Shown piece by piece: positions 2,109 to 28,095 of a stretch of 64,000 bases of DNA. The notes beneath the pieces are model-generated. The model had not been told where the DNA came from. It did no database searches and saw only the letters and a list, made by a program, of their open reading frames with translations. Every line of letters begins with the position of its first letter. Within the stretch, counting starts at the first letter, position 1. The stretch covers positions 1-64,000 of the IMG/VR virus record IMGVR_UViG_3300027763_000037; one strand, given 5' to 3'. The position numbers and the translations under genes are program-made. Source of the stretch: a virus.

Positions 2109-2635
2109 TGCCTGTCGATTCAATTTATTTTTCAAACTATACAAGGTCTGGCCTTGCTTTTATGCAATATTTAATAACTCTTTGCCCAAATCTTCCTATG
2201 GGTCATGCCAGTCACGGAATTCAAACACGTCGGAGAACAATGACTGTTATAAGAAACCCTATGGATGTATGTGCATCATCAATTATAAATAATTATGATA
2301 ATTGTCAGGATATTAATCAAACTATTAAAGAAGAAGAACGCAAATATATAAAATTTTACAAAGAATTATTAAAACAAGATGATCTTATTGTTATAGATTT
2401 TAATGATCTTGTAGGCAGGCCAGAAGAAACTATGAAGTCTATTCACAAACTTTTAGATTTGCCGTTTTTAATGTATGATCGTGATAAAGATATGACATTT
2501 AATGAAGATGGTCACCTTCATACATCTAAAACACATCCTGAATATGATAGAATTAAGGATGCAGTTTATCAGATTACTCATACAAAGTCTTTAGAAATAT
2601 ATAAACAAACATTAGAAAGAGGGTTAAGAGTATGA
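2108..2635 (+). CDS. Sulfotransferase-like protein (paralogue 2)
   Basis: NYTRSG, IRNPMDVCAS, FNDLVGRPEETMKSIHKLLDL. Confidence 0.65.
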   Translation: MPVDSIYFSNYTRSGLAFMQYLITLCPNLPMGHASHGIQTRRRTMTVIRNPMDVCASSIINNYDNCQDINQTIKEEERKYIKFYKELLKQDDLIVIDFNDLVGRPEETMKSIHKLLDLPFLMYDRDKDMTFNEDGHLHTSKTHPEYDRIKDAVYQITHTKSLEIYKQTLERGLRV

Positions 2636-2727
2636 TAGTAGCACTAATAACATTTGCAGTAGGTTATATAGCCTGCTATTTTGTTATGACTTTTGGAATA
2701 AATAATGATAAGGAGAAAGATCAATGA
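2632..2727 (+). CDS. Small single-TM protein (31 aa)
   Basis: MIVALITFAVGYIACYFVMTFG...; ATGA overlaps at both ends. Confidence 0.5.
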   Translation: MIVALITFAVGYIACYFVMTFGINNDKEKDQ

Positions 2728-2909
2728 GTCTATGTACATGTGGATACTCCACTGACTACCCAGATTGTAATGGAACACACAGAGCAGTAAGAAGGCTAAG
2801 AGAAGAGATTGCCCAGGCTATTGAGGCTATAGACATAGAGTCTTCAGTAACAAACGCCGTGGGCACAAAAATCTTAGCAGCAAAGATAGCAAGAAATCAA
2901 AATGATTAA
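2724..2909 (+). CDS. CDGSH-type iron-sulfur domain protein
   Basis: CTCGYSTDYPDCNGTH matches C-x-C-x2-S-x3-P-x-C-D/N-G-S/T-H. Confidence 0.8.
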   Translation: MSLCTCGYSTDYPDCNGTHRAVRRLREEIAQAIEAIDIESSVTNAVGTKILAAKIARNQND

Positions 2910-2979
2910 TAGGATTATTTTTATAATAAAACAAAAGATTAAAAATAAAAAAATAAAAAAGGCAAAAAGAATATACTAA
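2902..2979 (+). CDS. Lys-rich micropeptide ending -RIY (25 aa)
   Basis: MINRIIFIIKQKIKNKKIKKAKRIY*; stop overlaps the ATG of the SGNH-like gene (TAATG). Confidence 0.6.
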   Translation: MINRIIFIIKQKIKNKKIKKAKRIY

Positions 2980-3881
2980 TGTCTTATGATGCTTTTAATG
3001 TAGAACTTAATCCATCAAAATTAATATATGGGCTTATGCAGCCACCCCATGACTATGTAAGTGATAAGTATAGTTATACTGTTAACAAAGATGGTTTTAG
3101 ATCTGTAGACTTTTTAACTAAGCCCCCGATAATTACCCTGGGATGCTCTATTACGTTCGGCACAGGGCTACCAGAAGGCTTTAATTGGCCATCACAGTTG
3201 CAGTCTTTGCTGGGCAAAGACAAGATGATTGGTAATCTTGGAGATCATGGATCATCAATAATGAAAAATATATCTCAGTTCTTTTCATTTGTAAAAAAAT
3301 ATAATTATCTTCCAGAATATCTTTTGTGTAACTTTCCAGACTTTCAAAGATTTTATTTTATTAATAAAAACTTAAATAATATGGAAAATCTTTTCTGGTT
3401 AAAAGAAAGCATAAAGACTAAGGGCACAGCGCCATTTGAATGGGATAAGATAGTTCCTTCTCAGTGGATTAATTGGTCTAACCTTGATCACATTAAAATG
3501 TTAGAGCAGTTTTGTTATTTTAATAACATAAAACTAATATGGACGACATGGTCTGATAATATTCCTGACGAACTTGAAGACTGTTTTGCTAAAGATTTTA
3601 TCTTTTATAAAAAAGATCCAACCAGAGAACTGTTTCCAAATGATTTTGAGTTTAACTTTGCAGTTGACAAGATAGATAATTTAAGAACTCATTACGCAAT
3701 TATAGATTCTAAATTAGATTGTCATAGTCAGGTTAGGGACAAAAATCAAGATGTATTTGATTTTGGATATGATCATGGAAATATTAATCCTCCATTTCAT
3801 CCACACCCTGGGTCGCATAGGCATGCACATTGGGCAGACTTTTTTTACAAAGAAATGGAGGGTATGACTAATGGCAATTAA
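2979..3881 (+). CDS. SGNH/GDSL-like acyltransferase/esterase (paralogue 1)
   Basis: NKDGFRS..F, LGCSITFG (block I Ser), NLG..G.S, C-terminal PHPG...H..WA. Confidence 0.7.
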   Translation: MSYDAFNVELNPSKLIYGLMQPPHDYVSDKYSYTVNKDGFRSVDFLTKPPIITLGCSITFGTGLPEGFNWPSQLQSLLGKDKMIGNLGDHGSSIMKNISQFFSFVKKYNYLPEYLLCNFPDFQRFYFINKNLNNMENLFWLKESIKTKGTAPFEWDKIVPSQWINWSNLDHIKMLEQFCYFNNIKLIWTTWSDNIPDELEDCFAKDFIFYKKDPTRELFPNDFEFNFAVDKIDNLRTHYAIIDSKLDCHSQVRDKNQDVFDFGYDHGNINPPFHPHPGSHRHAHWADFFYKEMEGMTNGN

Positions 3882-4614
3882 AGAAGAATATATTCCTGAT
3901 GGTATTGGGGCACAGTTATTTAGAAAGATTGTTGTAAAGTCTTATGCCGATGCCATTGGAGAAGAGTATTACAATGATCCTATTAAAGATTTTTTAATAC
4001 ATGAATCTGATAACATAAAAACAGAAGATGAAAAAAATAAAATTATAGAACAGTTTAACAATCTTATATCACACACAAATTCTAAAGATATGAATTATGA
4101 TATTAAAGAAATTAGTACAAATGAAATTAATTCTTCAATGCTTACTAACTTTAATTTTTTAAATATTGAAACAATTAAAGAAAATAGAATTGTCATACAT
4201 ATTAGAAGAGGAAATGTCATACCAACGAACCCTCGCTGGATAGATGAAGAAAGATATGTAGAACTTATAGAGAACATAGATAATATTTCAAAACTTTTTT
4301 CATTAGAAAACCCAGACATATTTATTTTGACAGATTCTCCAGTTAATACAAATAAGTTTAAGCCATATGAAAAACAAGATGATTACTGGAAACAAGAACA
4401 TCTTGTTGCTGATAGCAATGGAGAATATCCCTTAACATCAATTAATCCTGATAACTTTCCTAATGTTAAGATAATAAATAACATGGGTACGTATGAGTCA
4501 TTTCTTTTTATGCTTAACTCAGCAGTTATAGTTCCATCTTGGTCAGCATTTAGTAAAGCAGCATCATTGTTAACAAAGAATTCTTATGTTGACATCTTTG
4601 GCGTATTAGGATAG
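3871..4614 (+). CDS. GT11-like (alpha-1,2-fucosyltransferase-like) glycosyltransferase
   Basis: DGIGAQL, HIRRG GDP-sugar motif, C-terminal S.FS. Confidence 0.65.
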   Translation: MAIKEEYIPDGIGAQLFRKIVVKSYADAIGEEYYNDPIKDFLIHESDNIKTEDEKNKIIEQFNNLISHTNSKDMNYDIKEISTNEINSSMLTNFNFLNIETIKENRIVIHIRRGNVIPTNPRWIDEERYVELIENIDNISKLFSLENPDIFILTDSPVNTNKFKPYEKQDDYWKQEHLVADSNGEYPLTSINPDNFPNVKIINNMGTYESFLFMLNSAVIVPSWSAFSKAASLLTKNSYVDIFGVLG

Positions 4615-6531: not shown

Positions 6532-7296
6532 TTAGTTTTGTTTGCCTTTAGACACAACCGTAACGACTGCATGTTCATCAAAAAGATGCTCTACAAGATC
6601 TTCTTCAAGTTGTCTAATTACTTGACTATACTTTCCATGAACAATATTTTGGTTTTGCAATCCGCCGTTTATTACTAAGCAAACCTCTCTATCCTCATTA
6701 AAAATTTCTAACATTTCTTTTAATAGTTCTAATATATTATATCTATAGTGAAGCAAAACAAGAAGTTCTTTAATATCTTTTATTCTTTCCAGAGTTTCAA
6801 TTTCTTTTTGTGCTGCATCATTTTCAATAACGATTCCTTCTTCAATAGATGCACGAGTTGCATCATTTGCAAAAAATTCTTTTAGCATGTAGCCAGCCTC
6901 TCCAGACTCCATAGCAGAAAGAGCAATTGCTAATGGCGCTGCAGATGGGCCAGCAACAATAGAAACTTCATATCCTTCTGACCTGACTTTTCTTATAAGA
7001 GATGATCCTGGGTCTGCAATTCCTGGATAGCCCATATGCAATAACAGCATTGTATTCTTACCAGAATCAAGAATTTCTTTTGTTTTTGAGAATTGTTCCT
7101 CAAGTGTATAATCAAGAAAAACATCATAGTTTATTTTGTTTTGTATGTTTAGATTGGTCATATCTTTTAGCAATTGGTCTTCATGCTCTACCCATACAAA
7201 CTCTCCAGACTTTAGATAGTCCAGCACCTTTTGTGGTGTATCTGTTGGGTCTGTTAGATGATTGCAACCTATTATAAAAGTGCCGTTTTTATTCAT
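6532..7296 (-). CDS. RsmI-like tetrapyrrole-methylase-fold methyltransferase
   Basis: GYPGIADPG, VSIVAGPSA..LA..LS, DREVCLV. Confidence 0.7.
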   Translation of the reverse strand: MNKNGTFIIGCNHLTDPTDTPQKVLDYLKSGEFVWVEHEDQLLKDMTNLNIQNKINYDVFLDYTLEEQFSKTKEILDSGKNTMLLLHMGYPGIADPGSSLIRKVRSEGYEVSIVAGPSAAPLAIALSAMESGEAGYMLKEFFANDATRASIEEGIVIENDAAQKEIETLERIKDIKELLVLLHYRYNILELLKEMLEIFNEDREVCLVINGGLQNQNIVHGKYSQVIRQLEEDLVEHLFDEHAVVTVVSKGKQN

Positions 7297-7347: not shown

Positions 7348-8043
7348 ATGGCAAGAGAAATAGTTCCATCATTCATTGATTCATTCCCAGAACTACCGCT
7401 TAATCAAATTGAAGATGGTCATAAATTAGATCAAGATCAACTAAACAATACAAAACTTTATGCTTCAAGAGAAGAATACACAAAGCATCTTCCAAAAAAT
7501 ATGAGGTATATGGAGATAGGTGTTGCTTGGGGATATTACTCTGAGTTAGTTGCAGAAAATGCCAGCCCGAAAAGTATAGACTTGTTAGATTTTTATGATC
7601 TTGATCTTAAGTGTTGGTCATGGAGAAAGTTTGGAGAGTGTAAATGCGAGCCTGTTAAGCATGAAATGAAGTATACTCCAGAAACCCATGAGCCTTACAT
7701 AAAGGAATTGTTTAGTAAGTATAATAATGTTTCAACATTAAAAGGAAATGCAGTCGACATTCTTCCAGGCATAAACAAGGAATATGATTATATCTATATA
7801 GACATTTCAAATAAAAGGGATCAAACAAGAAAAGTTCTGAACTTATCTGCTGGACTTGTTCCCATTGGAGGAATAATTGGAATGAACGATTACTTGATCT
7901 TTGATGGTATTATAGAAGAGGCTCCTTACGGAACCTATCAAACTGTAAATGAATTTTTACACAAAAATAAAAATTGGTCAGTTACTGCGTTAGCACTGCA
8001 CAATCTTGGGTTTTACGATATATATATAAAAAGGGAGCAATAG
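7348..8043 (+). CDS. Class I SAM methyltransferase (Methyltransf_24-like)
   Basis: MEIGVAWG, YDYIYID, GGIIGMNDY. Confidence 0.8.
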   Translation: MAREIVPSFIDSFPELPLNQIEDGHKLDQDQLNNTKLYASREEYTKHLPKNMRYMEIGVAWGYYSELVAENASPKSIDLLDFYDLDLKCWSWRKFGECKCEPVKHEMKYTPETHEPYIKELFSKYNNVSTLKGNAVDILPGINKEYDYIYIDISNKRDQTRKVLNLSAGLVPIGGIIGMNDYLIFDGIIEEAPYGTYQTVNEFLHKNKNWSVTALALHNLGFYDIYIKREQ

Positions 8044-8044
8044 C

Positions 8045-8983
8045 ATGGCTGGAAAATATGACATAAAGTTAAATGATGATGCAAATATTTCTGATGTATT
8101 CTTTAATGAGTTCGATCTGACATGGATGCATGGTATGCCAAAAGACAAAAGAACGTTTACAAAACTTCCAATTGAAAATATTTTCAGGGGTGGAGATGAT
8201 GGATCCGTTATATACAACTACAATCAAGACGGATTTAGATCTGACGAGTTTTCTAATCAGCATGGCAAATATCATATTTTGTTTAGTGGCTGCTCACAGA
8301 CTGAGGGTGTCGGTGGATCTATAGAAACAGTATGGACAAACATTCTTCACAAAGAACTTAAAGATCGTGGACTTGATGTTGGTGGTTTTTATACTTTAGC
8401 AAGGTCTGGCTATGGATGGCAAAAAATTATTTCACAATTTATGCTATACACAAAAAAATACGGAATGCCAACACATTTCTTTGTACTTATGCCAAACATA
8501 GGAAGGTTCTACCTATGGTCTGAAGAAAGAAATAATTGGGTATATGTGCAAAGATACCCAGTAAATACTGACTATGATGCAATCAATGATTGGCGTAAAA
8601 AGCATGAATCTGAAGAAGTTCCTGAGCCTTCGAGGTTTGAAGAGCAAAAGTTGTCAGTTAAAGAACATAGAGAAAAGTTTTTAGATTTTGTTATAGGATG
8701 GAAACTTTTTTCAGAATACTGCAAAGCCAATAACGTTAAATTAGTTTGGTCTTCTTGGGACTATGCAGAATCAGATAACTATTCATTGATTAAAAGCAAT
8801 GAGTTCTTTCCGTTAAATGAAAGTAATGAGATCGAATCTTTCATATCAAAGAAAAGACCAGACCTAAAACTTGAAAAATATGACTTAATAAGAAGAGATG
8901 GGCACGATGGAGTTCTTTGGAATGAGTATTGGGCTGAAAAGTTTTTAGAAAAAATAGATGAAAGGGAGTTATTCAATGATTAA
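8045..8983 (+). CDS. SGNH/GDSL-like protein (paralogue 2)
   Basis: NQDGFRSDEF, ILFSGCSQTEG, C-terminal RDGHDG...N..WA. Confidence 0.7.
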   Translation: MAGKYDIKLNDDANISDVFFNEFDLTWMHGMPKDKRTFTKLPIENIFRGGDDGSVIYNYNQDGFRSDEFSNQHGKYHILFSGCSQTEGVGGSIETVWTNILHKELKDRGLDVGGFYTLARSGYGWQKIISQFMLYTKKYGMPTHFFVLMPNIGRFYLWSEERNNWVYVQRYPVNTDYDAINDWRKKHESEEVPEPSRFEEQKLSVKEHREKFLDFVIGWKLFSEYCKANNVKLVWSSWDYAESDNYSLIKSNEFFPLNESNEIESFISKKRPDLKLEKYDLIRRDGHDGVLWNEYWAEKFLEKIDERELFND

Positions 8984-9056
8984 AAAGATTAAGATGTGGT
9001 TCAGAATAAGAAAGATTAAAAAGCAGATCAATAGAAAAAGAGATTTTATTTATTAA
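8976..9056 (+). CDS. Lys/Arg-rich micropeptide ending -DFIY (26 aa)
   Basis: MIKKIKMWFRIRKIKKQINRKRDFIY*; SD-like AAGGGAG upstream; start overlaps the end of the SGNH gene. Confidence 0.65.
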   Translation: MIKKIKMWFRIRKIKKQINRKRDFIY

Positions 9057-10837: not shown

Positions 10838-11557
10838 ATGGATCAAGGAAAATTAGCAGACAAAGAAAATAGTGTAACGTCAAGCAGAAAAGGCAATAAG
10901 TTTAAGTATGAAAGCCCTTTTCCAGGAATGCATATCTATAATGATGTGTGGCCCGACTCAATGGATTTCTTTAGGAAAGTTGAAGAAGATACATTTTGGG
11001 AAAATAATGATAGAAATAAAGTTAAATGGCAAAGAGAGGACTATCTTGATGCTGAGGTAGGCAAAAAAGCCTACACATGTTGGGTATGGCATGATGAAGA
11101 TGTTCAAAAAAATCTTGAAGAAGTTATAGATTCTTATCTTTGGCATTGGGACCTTGATCCACATAGTCGTGAGTCTTTGAGAATCACAAAGTATTCTCCA
11201 ACTGGAGAGTTTTTTGGTATGCATCCTGATGACTCTTTTGCTACACCAAGAACTACTGCTTTAGTGTATTACCCAAACGATGACTATGAAGGTGGAGAAC
11301 TTGAATTTTTACATTTTGGTGTTAAGATAAAGCCAAAGGCTGGGCAGTTATTTTTATTTCCTGCTGCCTATAGTTATGAGCATAAAATTCATCCTGTTAC
11401 TGGTGGAAATCATAGATATACTCTCGTTACCTTTTTTAATCAAGGAACAGAGAAAGAAAGACAAACAAGAAGCAACATGATAAGTAAAAATAAATTTTAT
11501 ACTGCAAACCTTAAATATGTTCTTTCTCCAGAATTTGGAACTGTTGAAGAAAACTAA
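10838..11557 (+). CDS. 2OG-Fe(II) oxygenase, prolyl-4-hydroxylase-like
   Basis: HPD, YYPNDDYEGGELEF, distal H, RYT. Confidence 0.85.
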   Translation: MDQGKLADKENSVTSSRKGNKFKYESPFPGMHIYNDVWPDSMDFFRKVEEDTFWENNDRNKVKWQREDYLDAEVGKKAYTCWVWHDEDVQKNLEEVIDSYLWHWDLDPHSRESLRITKYSPTGEFFGMHPDDSFATPRTTALVYYPNDDYEGGELEFLHFGVKIKPKAGQLFLFPAAYSYEHKIHPVTGGNHRYTLVTFFNQGTEKERQTRSNMISKNKFYTANLKYVLSPEFGTVEEN

Positions 11558-19780: not shown

Positions 19781-21211
19781 TTACCTACATATTGTAAAAT
19801 TGTACTCTTTTTCCCATTTAACAATATCATTTTCATCATTTAGTAATGGTTGCCCTTTAATATTTAAACTTGTATTAAGAAGTATAGGCACCCCAGTTTG
19901 TAAATAGAATTTATTTAAAACCCTATAAATCCCTGGGTTTTGATCTCTTGTAACTGTTTGTACTCTCGATGTACCATCTGCATGTACGACTGAAGGTATC
20001 TTATCAGGCTGCAAACATTTAACTGTATACTGCATATATGGGCTTTCAAAGTCCATATCAAACCACTTTGATGCATGCTCTGCCATCACTACTGGAGCAA
20101 AAGGTCTAAAGAGTTCTCTCTGTTTAATTAGATTAACTTTGTCTTTGATTAGTGGATCTCTTGGATCTGCAAGGATGCTTCTGTTTCCTAATGCTCTTGG
20201 ACCATACTCTGCTCTTCCTGATGCTACTGCTACGATTCCATCTTTTAGTATGCCGTCCAAAATTTTCTGAACAGGGTACTCTCCACCAAGGTCATAGCCA
20301 AGATAAGGAGTCTTCCAATCAAGATGCTTTCCATATAGGGCTGCTGCTGCACCCAAAGAACTTCCAGCATCTCCTGGGTTGGGCATAATCCAAATCATAT
20401 CAAATATTTTCCACAGCAGTGTATTTGCGGATGAGTTTAGTGCACATCCACCCATGAATACTAAATTATTTTTGCCAGTTAAACTTTTTGCCATACGCAT
20501 GAATTGATTTAGCCTTTGCTCGTATACCATTTGTGCTGCTGCTGCTATATCAAACTTATCTTGTTCTGAAACCCATCCCCAGTCAGTAATTCCCTTATGA
20601 AAATTATATTTTTGCTCATCGTAATTTGGAAAATATTCGTCAACTTTTTTATAATATTTTGTCCAATCTCCGTAAGCAGCCATACCCATCATAATATATT
20701 CTTCTTGGTTTGGCATAAGGCCTATGAGTTGAGTAAATGCAGAGTAGAACAATCCAAAACTAACTGGATAGTTCTGCTTATACTTAAGTTTAATCTTGTC
20801 GCCTTCACCAACCCAAATTGTTGATGTATTAAATTCTCCAATAGCATCAAGGACTACAATACATGCATCATTAAATGCGCTTGTATAATATCCTGCTGCT
20901 GCATGTGAGTAATGATGACCAAAGTTTTTTCTTGGTAAATCTCCAAGTTCTGTAGATTCAAACCATGGCTTTCCACCACCAAAGCCACCCTTAGTCTTTA
21001 CTCTAAGTTTTTTAAGCAAAGGTTTCTCGTAGTATGCAATCTGATCTGGATAGCCATACTGCAATGCATCTTTGATTAATTCTTTATTTGTAAACCAATC
21101 ATTTTTTTGCTTGCTATATCTTTCTGCATGTCCTGCAAAAAGTATTTTTCCATCTTCTATTAAAGAAATAGAAGCATCATGCGTAGTCTCATTTATACCT
21201 AATATTATCAT
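19781..21211 (-). CDS. NodU/CmcH-family O-carbamoyltransferase
   Basis: HDAS, ERYSK.KND, HHYSHAA, DAIGE, GGCALN, GPRALGNRS, FRPFAP, VHADGTSRVQTV, NTSLN. Confidence 0.95.
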   Translation of the reverse strand: MIILGINETTHDASISLIEDGKILFAGHAERYSKQKNDWFTNKELIKDALQYGYPDQIAYYEKPLLKKLRVKTKGGFGGGKPWFESTELGDLPRKNFGHHYSHAAAGYYTSAFNDACIVVLDAIGEFNTSTIWVGEGDKIKLKYKQNYPVSFGLFYSAFTQLIGLMPNQEEYIMMGMAAYGDWTKYYKKVDEYFPNYDEQKYNFHKGITDWGWVSEQDKFDIAAAAQMVYEQRLNQFMRMAKSLTGKNNLVFMGGCALNSSANTLLWKIFDMIWIMPNPGDAGSSLGAAAALYGKHLDWKTPYLGYDLGGEYPVQKILDGILKDGIVAVASGRAEYGPRALGNRSILADPRDPLIKDKVNLIKQRELFRPFAPVVMAEHASKWFDMDFESPYMQYTVKCLQPDKIPSVVHADGTSRVQTVTRDQNPGIYRVLNKFYLQTGVPILLNTSLNIKGQPLLNDENDIVKWEKEYNFTICR

Positions 21212-22182
21212 TTTTTTCCAAACAACTCTATGTACCAAGAATACATTCTATTAGCAAAATATCTTTGAACTGCATACCCATCGTGACGCAAATCTCTAGC
21301 CTTGTTTTCATATTTAGACTTTGGTAAATTAATCATTTTTTCTTCTAAATCATAAAACATTTTTTCAGATAATTCTGTATCAGACCTAAACTTTTTAAAA
21401 TCAATCATCCTGTATAGTGCATCTTCTGGACCCCATGTATTCCAAATTAATTCTATATTATTTGCAATACAAAAAATTTCAAGCATTCTTAGGGTATATA
21501 CCGATCTTAATATAGATGCTTCTGCAGACATGACCTGCTCAACTTTTCCAGATCCAATCTCTTCTTTAGTTACTGTTCTCATATTGACATGATCAACAAA
21601 GTTTACATCATTTCTTTCTTTTGCTCCAGGGTACTCCAATAATCCATAACCAATTTGTCGATCAATATCTGGTGCTAAAAAATATATAATATTTGGATTA
21701 CCAAAAAGATGACAATACTTAAAGATATTTTGAACTATTTTTTCTATAGAGCCACCAGTAAAAGAAAGTGCTTGGTAAGGACCAAAACTTACTTCAGGAT
21801 TATCTGTCTTCATCCATTGATATAAAATTGATGGCCAAGTCTCCTCTACTGGCAAACCTGAGCCAAATGTTTGGGAACATCCAGCAAATAAAACATTTGT
21901 TTTATCTTTATTTAGTCTACTAAATTCATCAGACCTGTGCCCAAAAGAATTGCTTATATATGAAATTTTTTCATCATAAACAATTGAACTTTCCATGTCT
22001 GGACTGTCATCTAAATGAAATGACAAAGGATTTTTGTTATATGAATCCAACATTGGCAAACTACAGTGATCAAGATTATACGTCATTGGATTTAAAGATA
22101 AAATATTTAAATCTATTTGATCTAGCCTAAACCTATCATTAGCATATTCTGGACCATCATAATTAAAAAACCTACTAGTCAT
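21208..22182 (-). CDS. SGNH/GDSL-like protein (paralogue 3)
   Basis: NSFGHRSDEF, LFAGCSQTFG, RDLRHDG; ATGA overlap with the carbamoyltransferase. Confidence 0.7.
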   Translation of the reverse strand: MTSRFFNYDGPEYANDRFRLDQIDLNILSLNPMTYNLDHCSLPMLDSYNKNPLSFHLDDSPDMESSIVYDEKISYISNSFGHRSDEFSRLNKDKTNVLFAGCSQTFGSGLPVEETWPSILYQWMKTDNPEVSFGPYQALSFTGGSIEKIVQNIFKYCHLFGNPNIIYFLAPDIDRQIGYGLLEYPGAKERNDVNFVDHVNMRTVTKEEIGSGKVEQVMSAEASILRSVYTLRMLEIFCIANNIELIWNTWGPEDALYRMIDFKKFRSDTELSEKMFYDLEEKMINLPKSKYENKARDLRHDGYAVQRYFANRMYSWYIELFGKK

Positions 22183-22185
22183 AGA

Positions 22186-22857
22186 CTATTCTCTTCCGTC
22201 AGAAAGTATTGGCTTCTCCATATTGTGATACCAGTGTGGCAAAGAGTATCTTGTCCCTGATGTTATTTCTTGTACTTCATGAACGTACAAAAAGTTTGAT
22301 GGGAAAAATACAATACTGCCAGGGTCTGGCTCAAGAATAATATCTGAATTTACAAATTCAATCTCTCCACCTTCGTAGTCATCATTAAAGTATGAAACTA
22401 CAGATAGAACACGGCTACTAATTCCATGATCTTGGTGTGCTGGAAGGAATCCTCCTGGCTCATACCTAAGCATATTTACGCCAAACTCTCTTGACTTTAT
22501 GTTTGCATGAGCAAATGGATATAACTCTTTTGCATAATGATTGTAAGCAACCTCAAGTGGATCATAAATTCTTTTTGATAGACTTGACAACTCTTTGTAA
22601 TAATAGTCTTGTTCTGTAACCGTACCAGGTTTGGGAATAAATTTTTGCCAACAAAATGTTTCTAGAGTTCCAGCACTTTCATTTTGCCATGGCATCCAAT
22701 CTGTTTGAATTGTATGGGCATTTCCATGCTCTTTGTTAATAAATCTTTCGTGCATTTCTTTTATATCATCAATAATTAATTGAGGATCTTTAATAATGTT
22801 AGTATAGTATACTAATCCAAGGTCTGCAATTTCAAAATCAAATGGAAGTGAGTTCAT
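22186..22857 (-). CDS. 2OG-Fe(II) oxygenase, P4H-like
   Basis: HQD, YFNDDYEGGEIEF, HEV, RYS. Confidence 0.85.
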   Translation of the reverse strand: MNSLPFDFEIADLGLVYYTNIIKDPQLIIDDIKEMHERFINKEHGNAHTIQTDWMPWQNESAGTLETFCWQKFIPKPGTVTEQDYYYKELSSLSKRIYDPLEVAYNHYAKELYPFAHANIKSREFGVNMLRYEPGGFLPAHQDHGISSRVLSVVSYFNDDYEGGEIEFVNSDIILEPDPGSIVFFPSNFLYVHEVQEITSGTRYSLPHWYHNMEKPILSDGRE

Positions 22858-23443
22858 GGAACTGAGCCTCCCATCTTAGGTTAGATTTTGGAACATCGAT
22901 AAAGTCTGGATCAACATGCTCTGGCAAACTTGTATGCATGTATAGTGCAGTATATCTGTTACCCCTTGTTACTGTTGTTATTCCATGGATGTATTCGCTT
23001 CCAGCCCCTGGAAAAAATACAGCAGAGTATTGCTTGGGTTGATATGTAAAGTTTTGATTAGGGAAATATATCATTCCTCCATCATATTCTGATTCATTGT
23101 TTAGATACATAATTGTGCTCCACTCAATAAATGGCTCAGGATCTTGAGCATCTATATGAAGTCCGCCCTTTGTTCCTTCTGTCCAGTGTGATCCAAAACC
23201 TTTAAAAACATAAATAGGATTTACAAACCCATTAAGTTGTTTATGAACATCATTTGCTTTGTGTCCGTACTTTACCATTATGTCCATTACTGTTGGGTTA
23301 TATGGCAAAGAGGTTCCACCATATCGTTCCTTATAGTACTCTGGGTATGGAAGTTTGACACCATTTGGATCTTGCTGCTCACGTATCAGTGTTGCTGCAT
23401 CCTCTGGGGATATAAAGTTTTCTATAATTTTTATTCTATGCAT
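22838..23443 (-). CDS. 2OG-Fe(II) oxygenase, P4H-like
   Basis: HID, MYLN...YDGG.IYF, HGI, RYT. Confidence 0.85.
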   Translation of the reverse strand: MHRIKIIENFISPEDAATLIREQQDPNGVKLPYPEYYKERYGGTSLPYNPTVMDIMVKYGHKANDVHKQLNGFVNPIYVFKGFGSHWTEGTKGGLHIDAQDPEPFIEWSTIMYLNNESEYDGGMIYFPNQNFTYQPKQYSAVFFPGAGSEYIHGITTVTRGNRYTALYMHTSLPEHVDPDFIDVPKSNLRWEAQFHELTSI

Positions 23444-26467: not shown

Positions 26468-26650
26468 TTATTCCTTTATTTTTAAAACATACATACACGG
26501 ATCTCCGCCATCTTCCCACTCTTGTGCTTCTTCTTCAGTCATGTATGGATCACCTGTATGCGTATTACAAAATGGCTCTGTTACCCATCCTCTTTCTATA
26601 CCATTACCTAGCCAGATGTTAAACTCTAGTTCGTCATTATCATCTATCAT
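26468..26650 (-). CDS. Small acidic hypothetical protein
   Basis: W...GI.RGW...FC.TH.G......E...W..G.DPC. Confidence 0.7.
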   Translation of the reverse strand: MIDDNDELEFNIWLGNGIERGWVTEPFCNTHTGDPYMTEEEAQEWEDGGDPCMYVLKIKE

Positions 26651-27509
26651 TATTTATCCATTCTATAAAAAAGTCAGAAAACATAATATTTGGAACAATA
26701 CCTGGATGAGAGTTATCTGTTCCAATTCCAAAGATATCTTGATGCTCAGAATACTCTGGATCATCATATATTTTTTTAATTATTTCTTCTGGCTTAACTG
26801 TTTTTATTTTTTTAAATGTTTTTAGTCCTAGACTTTCTCCAAAATTTCCTGTGTGTATATCCCAAGATGTTGAGTAAAGTTTTATTTCATGAGAATTGCA
26901 GTATGCTTCAAGAAGTGAATAGAACTGTTTAAATTTTACAAATAATCTATATGCAATCTCTTTTGAATCTACTGTTAACTTCCAGTAATCTTCGTCTCCA
27001 TATTTTGCATGATTCTTAAGTCTAAAGATATCGGTATCATAATCATAAAATGTTTCTCTTGTAAAATCTGCAAAAGAAACACATATGATGTCTGGATTTC
27101 CAAACTCAACACAATATTTTATTATGTTTGTAACAAGTATTTCAACGCTTGCACCCATAATGCCAAGACAATGGAAATCTCCTTTATTTTCAAAATCTAA
27201 AGAATTGTACACTCTCCTAGACCATCTAAACTTATCAGGAAGACCTTGTCCAAAAGTTGCCGAACATCCAGCAAAAAGAATATTTGTCTTGTTTGTATCT
27301 AAAGTATCAAAATCATCACATCTATGCCCATAGTTATTTATTTTATAATAAACTCTTTTGTCAATATTTTCTTCTGGATATGACAAAGTTTGTACCTCAC
27401 TATTTTCAAATAATGATCTATCTGCCTTGTCTATTTTATAAGACATTTCTGAATGAGCATACAGGTTTTCATTTGAAAGTATTTCTACAATCATTGGTCT
27501 TTCACTCAT
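26640..27509 (-). CDS. SGNH/GDSL-like protein (paralogue 4)
   Basis: NNYGHRCDDF, LFAGCSATFG, DNSHPG. Confidence 0.7.
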   Translation of the reverse strand: MSERPMIVEILSNENLYAHSEMSYKIDKADRSLFENSEVQTLSYPEENIDKRVYYKINNYGHRCDDFDTLDTNKTNILFAGCSATFGQGLPDKFRWSRRVYNSLDFENKGDFHCLGIMGASVEILVTNIIKYCVEFGNPDIICVSFADFTRETFYDYDTDIFRLKNHAKYGDEDYWKLTVDSKEIAYRLFVKFKQFYSLLEAYCNSHEIKLYSTSWDIHTGNFGESLGLKTFKKIKTVKPEEIIKKIYDDPEYSEHQDIFGIGTDNSHPGIVPNIMFSDFFIEWINNDR

Positions 27510-27510
27510 G

Positions 27511-28035
27511 CTACATGCTCACTATGTCAACTGGTCCCATACATGATGGGTTAAACTTGATAGCAGCATTAACTGCTTGCATTACTCTGTTCCTTGCATT
27601 TTTTTGTTTGTCTGTTGCATACAGAACGCCGTAAGCATATTCTGCTCCTGAACCCATAGCAAGGTAAGGGAGAACATACTTTGACAAAGACATGTCAGCA
27701 GAACTGTGCTCATAGATTTGTCCACGAACTGCAATAATCAAACCAAGATCTCCGTCTTTAGATGTGTCTACCCAAAACTCATTATAGAATTCACGAAGTT
27801 CTTTAACAAACCTTGTCTGCATAAACTTGTCTGTATCTTTAATATTTGGAGCAGTTGGCCTAAAGTTGTATCGGATTCTTTCTCCGTCCATTGCGCCAGC
27901 ATACCCAATAAGGTATGGACCTATCTTCCAAACCTTTGGTGCTTCAAGTGCTAAAATGGTACCATCATCTGATGCTCCACGATCTCCAGCCATATAGATC
28001 TTGTCTTCATGTTTTACAACGGCAATGCAAGTCAC
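27511..28035 (-). CDS. Ntn-hydrolase, HslV/proteasome-beta-like protease
   Basis: GTG start gives N-terminal Thr (MTCIA); AGD, K, AMGSG; SD GGAGGGG. Confidence 0.8.
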   Translation of the reverse strand: MTCIAVVKHEDKIYMAGDRGASDDGTILALEAPKVWKIGPYLIGYAGAMDGERIRYNFRPTAPNIKDTDKFMQTRFVKELREFYNEFWVDTSKDGDLGLIIAVRGQIYEHSSADMSLSKYVLPYLAMGSGAEYAYGVLYATDKQKNARNRVMQAVNAAIKFNPSCMGPVDIVSM

Positions 28036-28066
28036 AGGTAGAAGCCCCTCCAGATAGGTATAATTA

Positions 28067-28095
28067 AGTATACCATTGCCTAGAGGGGCTGTCAA
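28067..28095 (-). promoter_or_regulatory. Consensus promoter embedded in an inverted repeat
   Basis: TTGACA-17 nt-TATACT with extended TG. Confidence 0.7.

Follow-up and report, generated by a model that had tools for sequence, protein, structure and literature searches.

What use might a phage have for a 26-codon gene that is wedged onto the end of an enzyme gene and whose product ends in a tyrosine? The locus that raises this question lies in the window analysed here, the opening 64 kb of an IMG/VR virus record of 111.9 kb (IMGVR_UViG_3300027763_000037; genome GC content 36.7%), the DNA of a phage present in freshwater metagenomes. At 8976..9056, an open reading frame (ORF) with an ATG start runs for 26 codons and closes with Asp-Phe-Ile-Tyr-stop. 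Its start codon, within AATGATTAA, shares an 8-nt overlap with the TAA stop of the gene at 8045..8983. An earlier note, made from the letters of this DNA alone, had picked out a 26-aa basic peptide with its own Shine-Dalgarno sequence overlapping the end of an SGNH-like gene, and this description is confirmed (GGGAG ahead of the start, overlap of 8 nt). We call the peptide microprotein 1 and its partner SGNH1. The microprotein is probably either the carrier arm of the SGNH enzyme or its peptide substrate. The peptide-SGNH pair is absent from Pfam, PHROGs and the literature searched; the latter held no mention of DUF5989, of a carbamoyl 'acyl shuttle' or of phage microproteins of this type.

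Conservation of the pair was assessed from both of its forms. The homologue alignment of the 8045..8983 protein led to 80 viral loci (subfamily 1; 36-96% identity), of which 68 carry an ATG-started basic ORF of 22-35 codons that ends in Tyr-stop and lies at or just after the enzyme stop. In ten others the start is TTG or GTG, and in one more it is unclear; the remaining locus is truncated where its contig stops. Counted over complete loci, the peptide directly follows the enzyme gene in 79/79. The second similar peptide that the earlier note had placed at 2902..2979 is present as well (25 aa) and heads a second subfamily, upstream of the paralogue SGNH2. Here, 80 loci with relatives of the 2979..3881 protein (subfamily 2) have a basic Tyr-stop ORF of 25-35 codons directly upstream of the enzyme gene in 80/80. 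Gene order is thus opposite in the two subfamilies, with the peptide after the enzyme in the first and before it in the second, and in both the stop and start codons of peptide and enzyme nearly always overlap or abut. The expectation that related loci would keep a small Lys-rich ORF with a terminal Tyr beside the SGNH gene was met at every complete locus. In four subfamily-2 loci (L096, L101, L103, L118), the peptide frame has no ATG, GTG or TTG start; each has an upstream in-frame ATG followed by TGA two codons on, which leaves either an ATT start or a bypass of the stop.

The amino acid that ends these peptides is strikingly constant. There are 46 distinct peptides in subfamily 1 and 38 in subfamily 2, and all 84 have a terminal Tyr, immediately preceded by Ile in about 80-90%. 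Subfamily-1 endings are FIY (38), YIY (5), FTY (2) and FLY (1), while subfamily-2 peptides end in a hydrophobic residue, then Ile, then Tyr. Close relatives differ mostly by synonymous changes (median dN/dS 0.29 in subfamily 1 and 0.24 in subfamily 2), and the other two forward frames are closed by stops in nearly every copy. A filter for 20-40 residues, at least 30% Lys plus Arg and an ending of hydrophobic-[ILT]-Tyr returned 8976..9056 as its sole match in the 111.9-kb genome, against a chance expectation of 0.03 per genome in first-order Markov simulations. Profiles built from both peptide sets matched only 8976..9056 and 2902..2979 in this genome. By these measures of sequence conservation, the 26-codon ORF is a genuine gene, strongly conserved among uncultured freshwater phages and far from a product of chance. 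It represents a missed class of gene: gene callers overlook the peptide, although 159/159 complete loci examined carry it.

The peptides share a common plan. A Met and a hydrophobic residue are followed by Lys-Lys/Arg and a short hydrophobic patch, often with Trp or Tyr; next comes a strongly basic stretch around R-K-I-K-K, then four to six variable residues rich in Pro, Gly, Asn and Ser, and finally hydrophobic-Ile-Tyr with a free carboxylate. Lys plus Arg make up 38-39% of residues and Asp plus Glu 1-3%. The earlier note had imagined an amphipathic basic helix acting as a membrane or polyanion tether, and its amphipathic character is not supported. The helical hydrophobic moment of residues 1-18 is not above that of shuffled controls (median z -1.2 and -0.1), so we have dropped the description 'amphipathic helix'. 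No membrane helix was found in the peptides either, the longest uncharged stretch being about 5-8 residues and the mean hydrophobicity of residues 1-18 negative. A longer version of the subfamily-2 peptide, raised by in-frame conservation of K-N-V-V-E-R..., was rejected, as the conserved stretch encodes, in another frame, the C-terminal end of the fucosyltransferase-like protein upstream.

The enzyme partners are harder to name from databases. Pfam gave no match for SGNH1 or SGNH2, PHROGs held no family for any of the window's four SGNH paralogues or for the peptides, and blastn and tblastn found nothing in cultured-phage records. SGNH1 and SGNH2, both of about 300 aa, share 28% identity over 186 residues (E 1e-13). 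The AlphaFold2 (AF2) model of SGNH1 (pLDDT 87, pTM 0.88) matches SGNH hydrolases in Foldseek, including TesA, acetyl-xylan esterases and PatB. Across 28 aligned sequences Ser84, Gly122, Asp285 and His287 are invariant, with block I reading G-C-S in place of G-D-S, Asn151 of block III following an invariant Pro150 in most rows, and block V being Asp285-x-His287. With the predicted fold and the catalytic residues both present, SGNH1 is, as far as model and alignment can tell, a member of the SGNH/GDSL hydrolase superfamily; the 'SGNH-like' label of the earlier note was apt despite the lack of a Pfam match. SGNH1 has no signal peptide or transmembrane segment and so looks cytoplasmic.

The closest solved structure to SGNH1 is CgnD (8a2n_A; VIA-align Z 16.1, root-mean-square deviation 3.6, 214 residues aligned), in a match that spans residues 12-304 of the model, N-terminal extension included. 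The next chain scores Z 13.7 in the Foldseek-based list or 12.6 in a Foldseek-independent scan of 48,161 representatives, giving CgnD a lead of 2.4-3.5 Z units over every other SGNH chain; PatB reaches Z 11.9-12.0. DltD is not among the 50 matches listed in either structural search, which is no evidence of a different fold. The likeness to CgnD is structural only, a profile search of PDB sequences with SGNH1 having returned nothing.

Relatives of SGNH1 are numerous and their distribution is narrow. At E <= 0.001, the family has 3,441 representatives among 1.84 billion cluster representatives, and every one of its neighbours in the ESM Atlas is viral. Among 185,579 species genomes scanned, an SGNH relative turned up on a single 2-kb contig of a metagenome-assembled genome, where the peptide is present too. 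The SGNH1 family thus appears essentially viral. The host may be an actinobacterium, to judge from a WhiB-like protein that is common near the relatives. In one family member, P0144, about 20 residues are fused to the C-terminus of the enzyme, comprising a Gly-rich linker and the ending G-G-K-G-D-Y-I-Y. Longer fused relatives of SGNH1 were not found, which is weak evidence. Another relative, P0116 (610 aa), consists of two SGNH domains duplicated in tandem.

Table 1. Positions, strands and main properties of the peptide, SGNH and associated genes in the window
Feature	Position	Strand	Properties
Microprotein 1 (P0001)	8976..9056	+	26 aa; hydrophobic then basic N-terminal segment, short linker, F-I-Y-COOH; conserved in 79/79 complete loci
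Shine-Dalgarno GGGAG of microprotein 1	8964..8968	+	7 nt before ATG; read directly
SGNH1	8045..8983	+	CgnD-like SGNH-fold enzyme, looks cytoplasmic; Ser84 (G-C-S), Gly122, Asp285, His287 invariant
Class I S-adenosylmethionine (SAM) methyltransferase (MT)	7348..8043	+	231 aa; first gene of MT-SGNH1-peptide operon; invariant Cys89/Cys98/Cys100/His105
Microprotein 2 (P0002)	2902..2979	+	25 aa, ends R-I-Y; stop/start overlaps with both neighbours
SGNH2	2979..3881	+	SGNH1 paralogue, always preceded by Tyr-ended peptide
NodZ-like (fucosyltransferase-like) glycosyltransferase	3871..4614	+	Overlaps SGNH2 end; weak NodZ-family Pfam match
NodU/CmcH-type carbamoyltransferase	19781..21211	-	Candidate Tyr loader or tailoring enzyme; coupled to SGNH3
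SGNH3	21208..22182	-	Third paralogue, no own peptide; TGA overlaps carbamoyltransferase ATG (ATGA)
SGNH4	26640..27509	-	Fourth paralogue, no adjacent peptide

What would such an enzyme do with a tyrosine at the end of a basic peptide? The most likely reading, which we hold tentatively, is that the microprotein is a covalent carrier, a 'swinging arm' whose terminal Tyr serves SGNH1. Made in translational coupling with SGNH1, the microprotein would bind its acidic enzyme partner and present the terminal Tyr to the Ser84/His287/Asp285 site. The Tyr hydroxyl would be loaded with a carbamoyl (or acyl) group, the best candidate for the loader being the phage's NodU-type carbamoyltransferase. The SGNH Ser would then take the group and pass it on to a glycan hydroxyl; methyl-, fucosyl- and sulfotransferases encoded nearby may also decorate this glycan, and the four SGNH paralogues would serve different acceptors. 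The most specific version, a soluble, MBOAT-free Tyr relay in which the NodU-type enzyme carbamoylates the peptide Tyr and CgnD-like SGNH enzymes deliver the group to different acceptors, is possible though doubtful. If a shuttle does operate here, Tyr relays can do without membranes and MBOATs, and carbamoyl groups could be among their cargo. A soluble relay would also put in a new light the small proteins that accompany carbamoyltransferases (SxtJ/SxtK with SxtL), and perhaps CgnD as a sluggish 'protease'.

Several observations favour the carrier. The peptide-SGNH partnership is obligate, holding across two paralogous subfamilies with opposite gene order (79/79 and 80/80 loci). The variable Pro/Gly/Asn-rich linker is what one would expect of a flexible tether. 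F-I-Y is the first half of the motif FXYXXF of the proven acyl-Tyr shuttle, for example FIYANF of PatA, which hands acyl groups to SGNH partners (PMC12148441). With four SGNH genes to two peptides and one carbamoyltransferase in the genome, a shared carrier serving several transferases fits better than a set of leader peptidases would. The fused tail of P0144, ending in Y-I-Y, indicates that a Tyr tail can work in cis. The surroundings are those of glycan tailoring, and count for the carrier too: the window encodes three sulfotransferase-like genes, a NodZ-like glycosyltransferase, GlcNAc-type glycosyltransferases and the MT, and subfamily-2 loci have an O-fucosyltransferase-like glycosyltransferase upstream (67/80) and an NAD-dependent sugar epimerase/dehydratase downstream (63/80).

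The candidate loader is itself genomically linked to the pair, as genes for peptide, SGNH enzyme and carbamoyltransferase are adjacent in relatives. Among 80 close relatives of the phage carbamoyltransferase, the next gene upstream encodes a Tyr-ended basic peptide in 30, an SGNH gene is an immediate neighbour in 47 (upstream in 41, downstream in 16) and neither is present in 16. The upstream peptides form a third subfamily (30 of loci L177-L256) with endings such as D-Y-I-Y, R-Y-I-Y and R-F-I-Y; examples are L174:5074-5169 (-) and L175:4388-4549 (+). At 17 + 4 loci, a Tyr-peptide stands beside the carbamoyltransferase with no SGNH gene between. No third-subfamily peptide lies upstream of the carbamoyltransferase in the window's genome. 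Seen from the pair, a carbamoyltransferase lies within 3 kb of 1/80 subfamily-1 loci vs 13/80 subfamily-2 loci, and all 16 near-complete genomes with a peptide-SGNH pair encode such an enzyme.

A number of points weigh against the carrier. The link to a NodU-type enzyme claimed in the earlier note stands across relatives but not within the window, where the carbamoyltransferase lies 11 kb from microprotein 1 and is coupled to SGNH3, the paralogue without a peptide. Its co-occurrence with the pair in every near-complete genome is not independent evidence, because the phages are related. The constant third gene of subfamily 1 is a methyltransferase and not a loader. The closest structure, CgnD (Z 16.1 vs 11.9-12.0 for PatB), cleaves a peptide and takes no acyl group. 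The peptide has neither xxF after its Tyr nor a membrane helix, and both proteins look cytoplasmic; as a cytoplasmic carbamoyltransferase could modify the acceptor directly, it is hard to see what a shuttle would be for. In serine hydrolases, moreover, carbamoyl-Ser intermediates usually have long lifetimes.

Two known systems join a C-terminal Tyr-containing peptide with an SGNH enzyme, namely the envelope acyl-Tyr shuttles and the crocagin-type peptide natural products. In the DltX-DltB-DltD and PatA-PatB systems, a tiny protein (DltX) or a tail (PatA) has F-x-Y near its C-terminus and an SGNH-fold partner with a catalytic Ser (PMC12148441). Phage peptides have F-I-Y as the commonest form of the first half of FXYXXF, and the phage set likewise includes separate-peptide and fused-tail versions. 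The phage pair would work like this shuttle family, yet is not a member of it, as three defining features are lacking. Of the FIYxxF-like motif that the earlier note gave for these systems, the phage peptides have the first half; the xxF is missing, with Tyr the last residue in all 84 phage peptides. The phage peptide is also without a transmembrane helix, and there is no membrane to cross between two partners that look cytoplasmic. The MBOAT-free character suggested in the earlier note is supported for the phage genome, in that neither MBOAT (PF03062) nor AT3 (PF01757) has a match in the 111.9-kb phage genome at E <= 1, a search in which the controls matched; a donor enzyme from the host is possible. 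Lastly, the group suspected in the phage is carbamoyl, not acetyl or D-alanyl, and among solved structures PatB is not the best match of SGNH1 and DltD is not among the matches listed.

Two further known systems are comparable in part. Saxitoxin tailoring genes encode the SxtI carbamoyltransferase, SxtJ, SxtK (55 aa, function unknown; DUF5989) and the GDSL-type SxtL (PMC2679770). As in the phage, a very small protein and a GDSL/SGNH protein accompany a NodU-type carbamoyltransferase. According to the earlier note, SxtK/DUF5989 peptides end in PFIY-type motifs. The phage peptides are half the size of SxtK, however, and the DUF5989 model (PF19451) matched 0/33 peptides at E <= 10 and nothing in the six frames of the genome at E <= 1. 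Four chemistries of the Nod-factor set (NodU carbamoyl, NodS methyl, NodZ fucosyl, NodH sulfo) occur in the first 28 kb of the window, as a NodU-family enzyme, a weak NodZ Pfam match, sulfotransferase-like genes and an MT that has NodS among its tied fold matches. The phage offers no chitin-oligosaccharide synthase context, which makes this a resemblance of toolkit only. No Nod enzyme is known to require a microprotein or an SGNH partner.

The strongest rival to the tyrosine shuttle takes the microprotein as a precursor or substrate, in the manner of peptides made by the ribosome and modified after translation (RiPPs). It arises because the closest solved structure, CgnD, trims a short basic crocagin precursor. 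In the crocagin pathway of Chondromyces crocatus, the 21-aa precursor CgnA combines a positively charged leader with a three-residue C-terminal core, I-Y-W; the hydrolase CgnD removes the leader, and within the core of crocagin-like precursors the conserved positions are Tyr and Trp (PMC10070186). The pathway further includes the 2-oxoglutarate (2OG) dioxygenase CgnC, the methyltransferase CgnL, which acts after cleavage, and the carbamoyltransferase CgnI (PMC10070186), as well as CgnB and CgnE, a pair of peptide-binding proteins. By analogy, the basic N-terminal part of the phage peptide would be a leader and its Tyr-ended C-terminus a core, which the CgnD-like SGNH enzyme would cleave or process and which the coupled MT (subfamily 1) or glycosyltransferase (subfamily 2), the carbamoyltransferase and the numerous 2OG-Fe(II) oxygenases would tailor into a Tyr product.

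We regard this substrate reading as possible and somewhat short of likely. CgnD is the top match in Foldseek-based and Foldseek-independent searches alike and the only studied close structural relative of SGNH1, and its own substrate is likewise a short peptide, with a basic leader and a Tyr-containing C-terminal tripeptide. The same enzyme classes are encoded near phage pairs, a likeness at the level of class: the MT is coupled to at least 72/80 subfamily-1 loci, a 2OG-Fe(II) oxygenase lies within 3 kb of 49/80 subfamily-1 and 30/80 subfamily-2 loci, and a carbamoyltransferase is found in 16/16 genomes. Moreover, the best PDB sequence matches of the MT profile are O-methyltransferases of aromatic hydroxyls. 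The phage peptides, however, end in x-I-Y without Trp, compared with x-Y-W in crocagin precursors; their one invariant position is the Tyr, and two residues ahead of it subfamily 2 is highly variable. It would be odd for one genome to have four paralogues of a leader peptidase, the stop/start coupling hints that enzyme and peptide are made at about 1:1, and there is the fused-tail form P0144. SGNH1 has no detectable sequence similarity to CgnD, the fold search with the MT does not single out CgnL (many class I enzymes tie at Z about 15), and the sugar epimerase/dehydratase and fucosyltransferase-like glycosyltransferase of subfamily 2 point to glycans. The phage pair thus resembles the crocagin scheme without reproducing it. 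Were the substrate reading true, phages would encode a widespread peptide-modification pathway. Either this or the carrier would provide a handle on the targets of the large 'decoration' gene sets in uncultured freshwater phages.

A third reading, which we think unlikely, dispenses with covalent chemistry. The microprotein would be a regulatory plug or adaptor whose hydrophobic-Ile-Tyr-COOH docks in the SGNH pocket or active site, as an inhibitor or immunity protein or as an activating tail, while its basic segment keeps the peptide on the acidic enzyme or recruits the enzyme to a polyanion (membrane, nucleic acid or cell-wall polymer). No loader enzyme is required, strict pairing with stop/start coupling is typical of enzyme-inhibitor and enzyme-subunit pairs, and P0144 could be an autoinhibited enzyme. 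The charges of the partners also look complementary, with 38-39% Lys plus Arg in the peptides and acidic SGNH enzymes (median net charge -7, SGNH1 -11). SGNH3 and SGNH4, which lack peptides, are nevertheless as acidic as SGNH1 and SGNH2, so net charge does not discriminate, and the N-terminal segment is not amphipathic by hydrophobic moment. Nor does a non-covalent subunit account for why Tyr, rather than any hydrophobic residue, ends 84 distinct peptides, or for the Tyr-peptides beside carbamoyltransferases at the 17 + 4 loci without an intervening SGNH gene.

That the ORF is not a gene, being either a Lys-rich frame left open by chance in AT-rich DNA or a stretch that happens to be open within a conserved nucleotide element, for example a terminator or an RNA structure, is vanishingly improbable: a GC content of 36.7% does favour open frames rich in Lys, Ile and Asn, and RNA-library contigs do not reach the ORF, but the Tyr-stop frame has stayed open at 159 loci, across which the partner enzymes fall to 36% identity, dN/dS is 0.24-0.29, the alternative forward frames are closed and the chance expectation is 0.03 per genome. 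The RNA library in question is one lake metatranscriptome, in which no contig covers the microprotein 1 ORF. Two short contigs from it are identical to the window, at 7936..8086 and 8157..8357. The first spans the MT/SGNH1 junction and is compatible with co-transcription, though DNA carry-over is possible and it is silent on translation; the second falls inside SGNH1.

The MT is the most constant neighbour of the subfamily-1 pair. It lies directly upstream of the SGNH gene in at least 72/80 loci, mostly with overlapping stop and start codons, so we consider the subfamily-1 unit to be MT-SGNH-peptide. The MT family has a mean column identity of 59% and an invariant Cys-x8-Cys-x-Cys-x4-His cluster (C89, C98, C100, H105) inserted in its Rossmann fold. 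This cluster is probably a zinc site, which is unusual for small-molecule O-methyltransferases. The best, albeit weak, PDB sequence matches of the MT profile are TrmR (1e-5) and cation-dependent phenolic/catechol O-methyltransferases. In the fold search, class I methyltransferases tie at Z 14-16 (the sugar O-methyltransferase MeT1, COMT, NodS, TrmR, MycF), and CgnL is not among the 50 matches listed; with so many tied, the search does not choose between glycan and peptide substrates. In L067:2236-3870 (+), MT and SGNH form one 544-aa ORF, which is either a natural fusion or an assembly error, the near-identical L068 having two genes. A tetrapyrrole-methylase-family (RsmI/diphthine-synthase-like) gene at 6532..7296 (-) is divergent from the MT in the window; it recurs beside the MT-SGNH-peptide unit and directly follows the peptide in L042 and L170.

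Genes around microprotein 2 overlap as well. Its start makes the same ATGATTAA overlap as that of microprotein 1, here on the stop of an ORF at 2724..2909 (+), and its end makes a TAATG on the start of the SGNH2 gene. The 61-aa product of 2724..2909 resembles the CDGSH iron-sulfur zinc-finger family at its N-terminus (PF09360, a weak match with E 1.7e-4 that misses the cut-off), and this CDGSH-like ORF occurs in only 3/80 subfamily-2 loci. A 31-aa ORF at 2632..2727 (+), hydrophobic over its first two thirds and resembling a membrane helix, has a sulfotransferase-like gene on one side and the CDGSH-like ORF on the other, with stop/start overlaps to both.

Elsewhere in the window, three 2OG-Fe(II) oxygenase genes of the prolyl 4-hydroxylase (P4H) type are found at 22186..23443 (-) and 10838..11557 (+). 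Two of the three are in tandem directly upstream of the SGNH3-carbamoyltransferase pair, an arrangement kept in several relatives (L171, L173, L176). Directly upstream of SGNH4, at 27511..28095 (-), lies a proteasome/HslV-like Ntn-hydrolase gene (PF00227, E 1.4e-4), whose homologues occur near 11/80 subfamily-1 loci.

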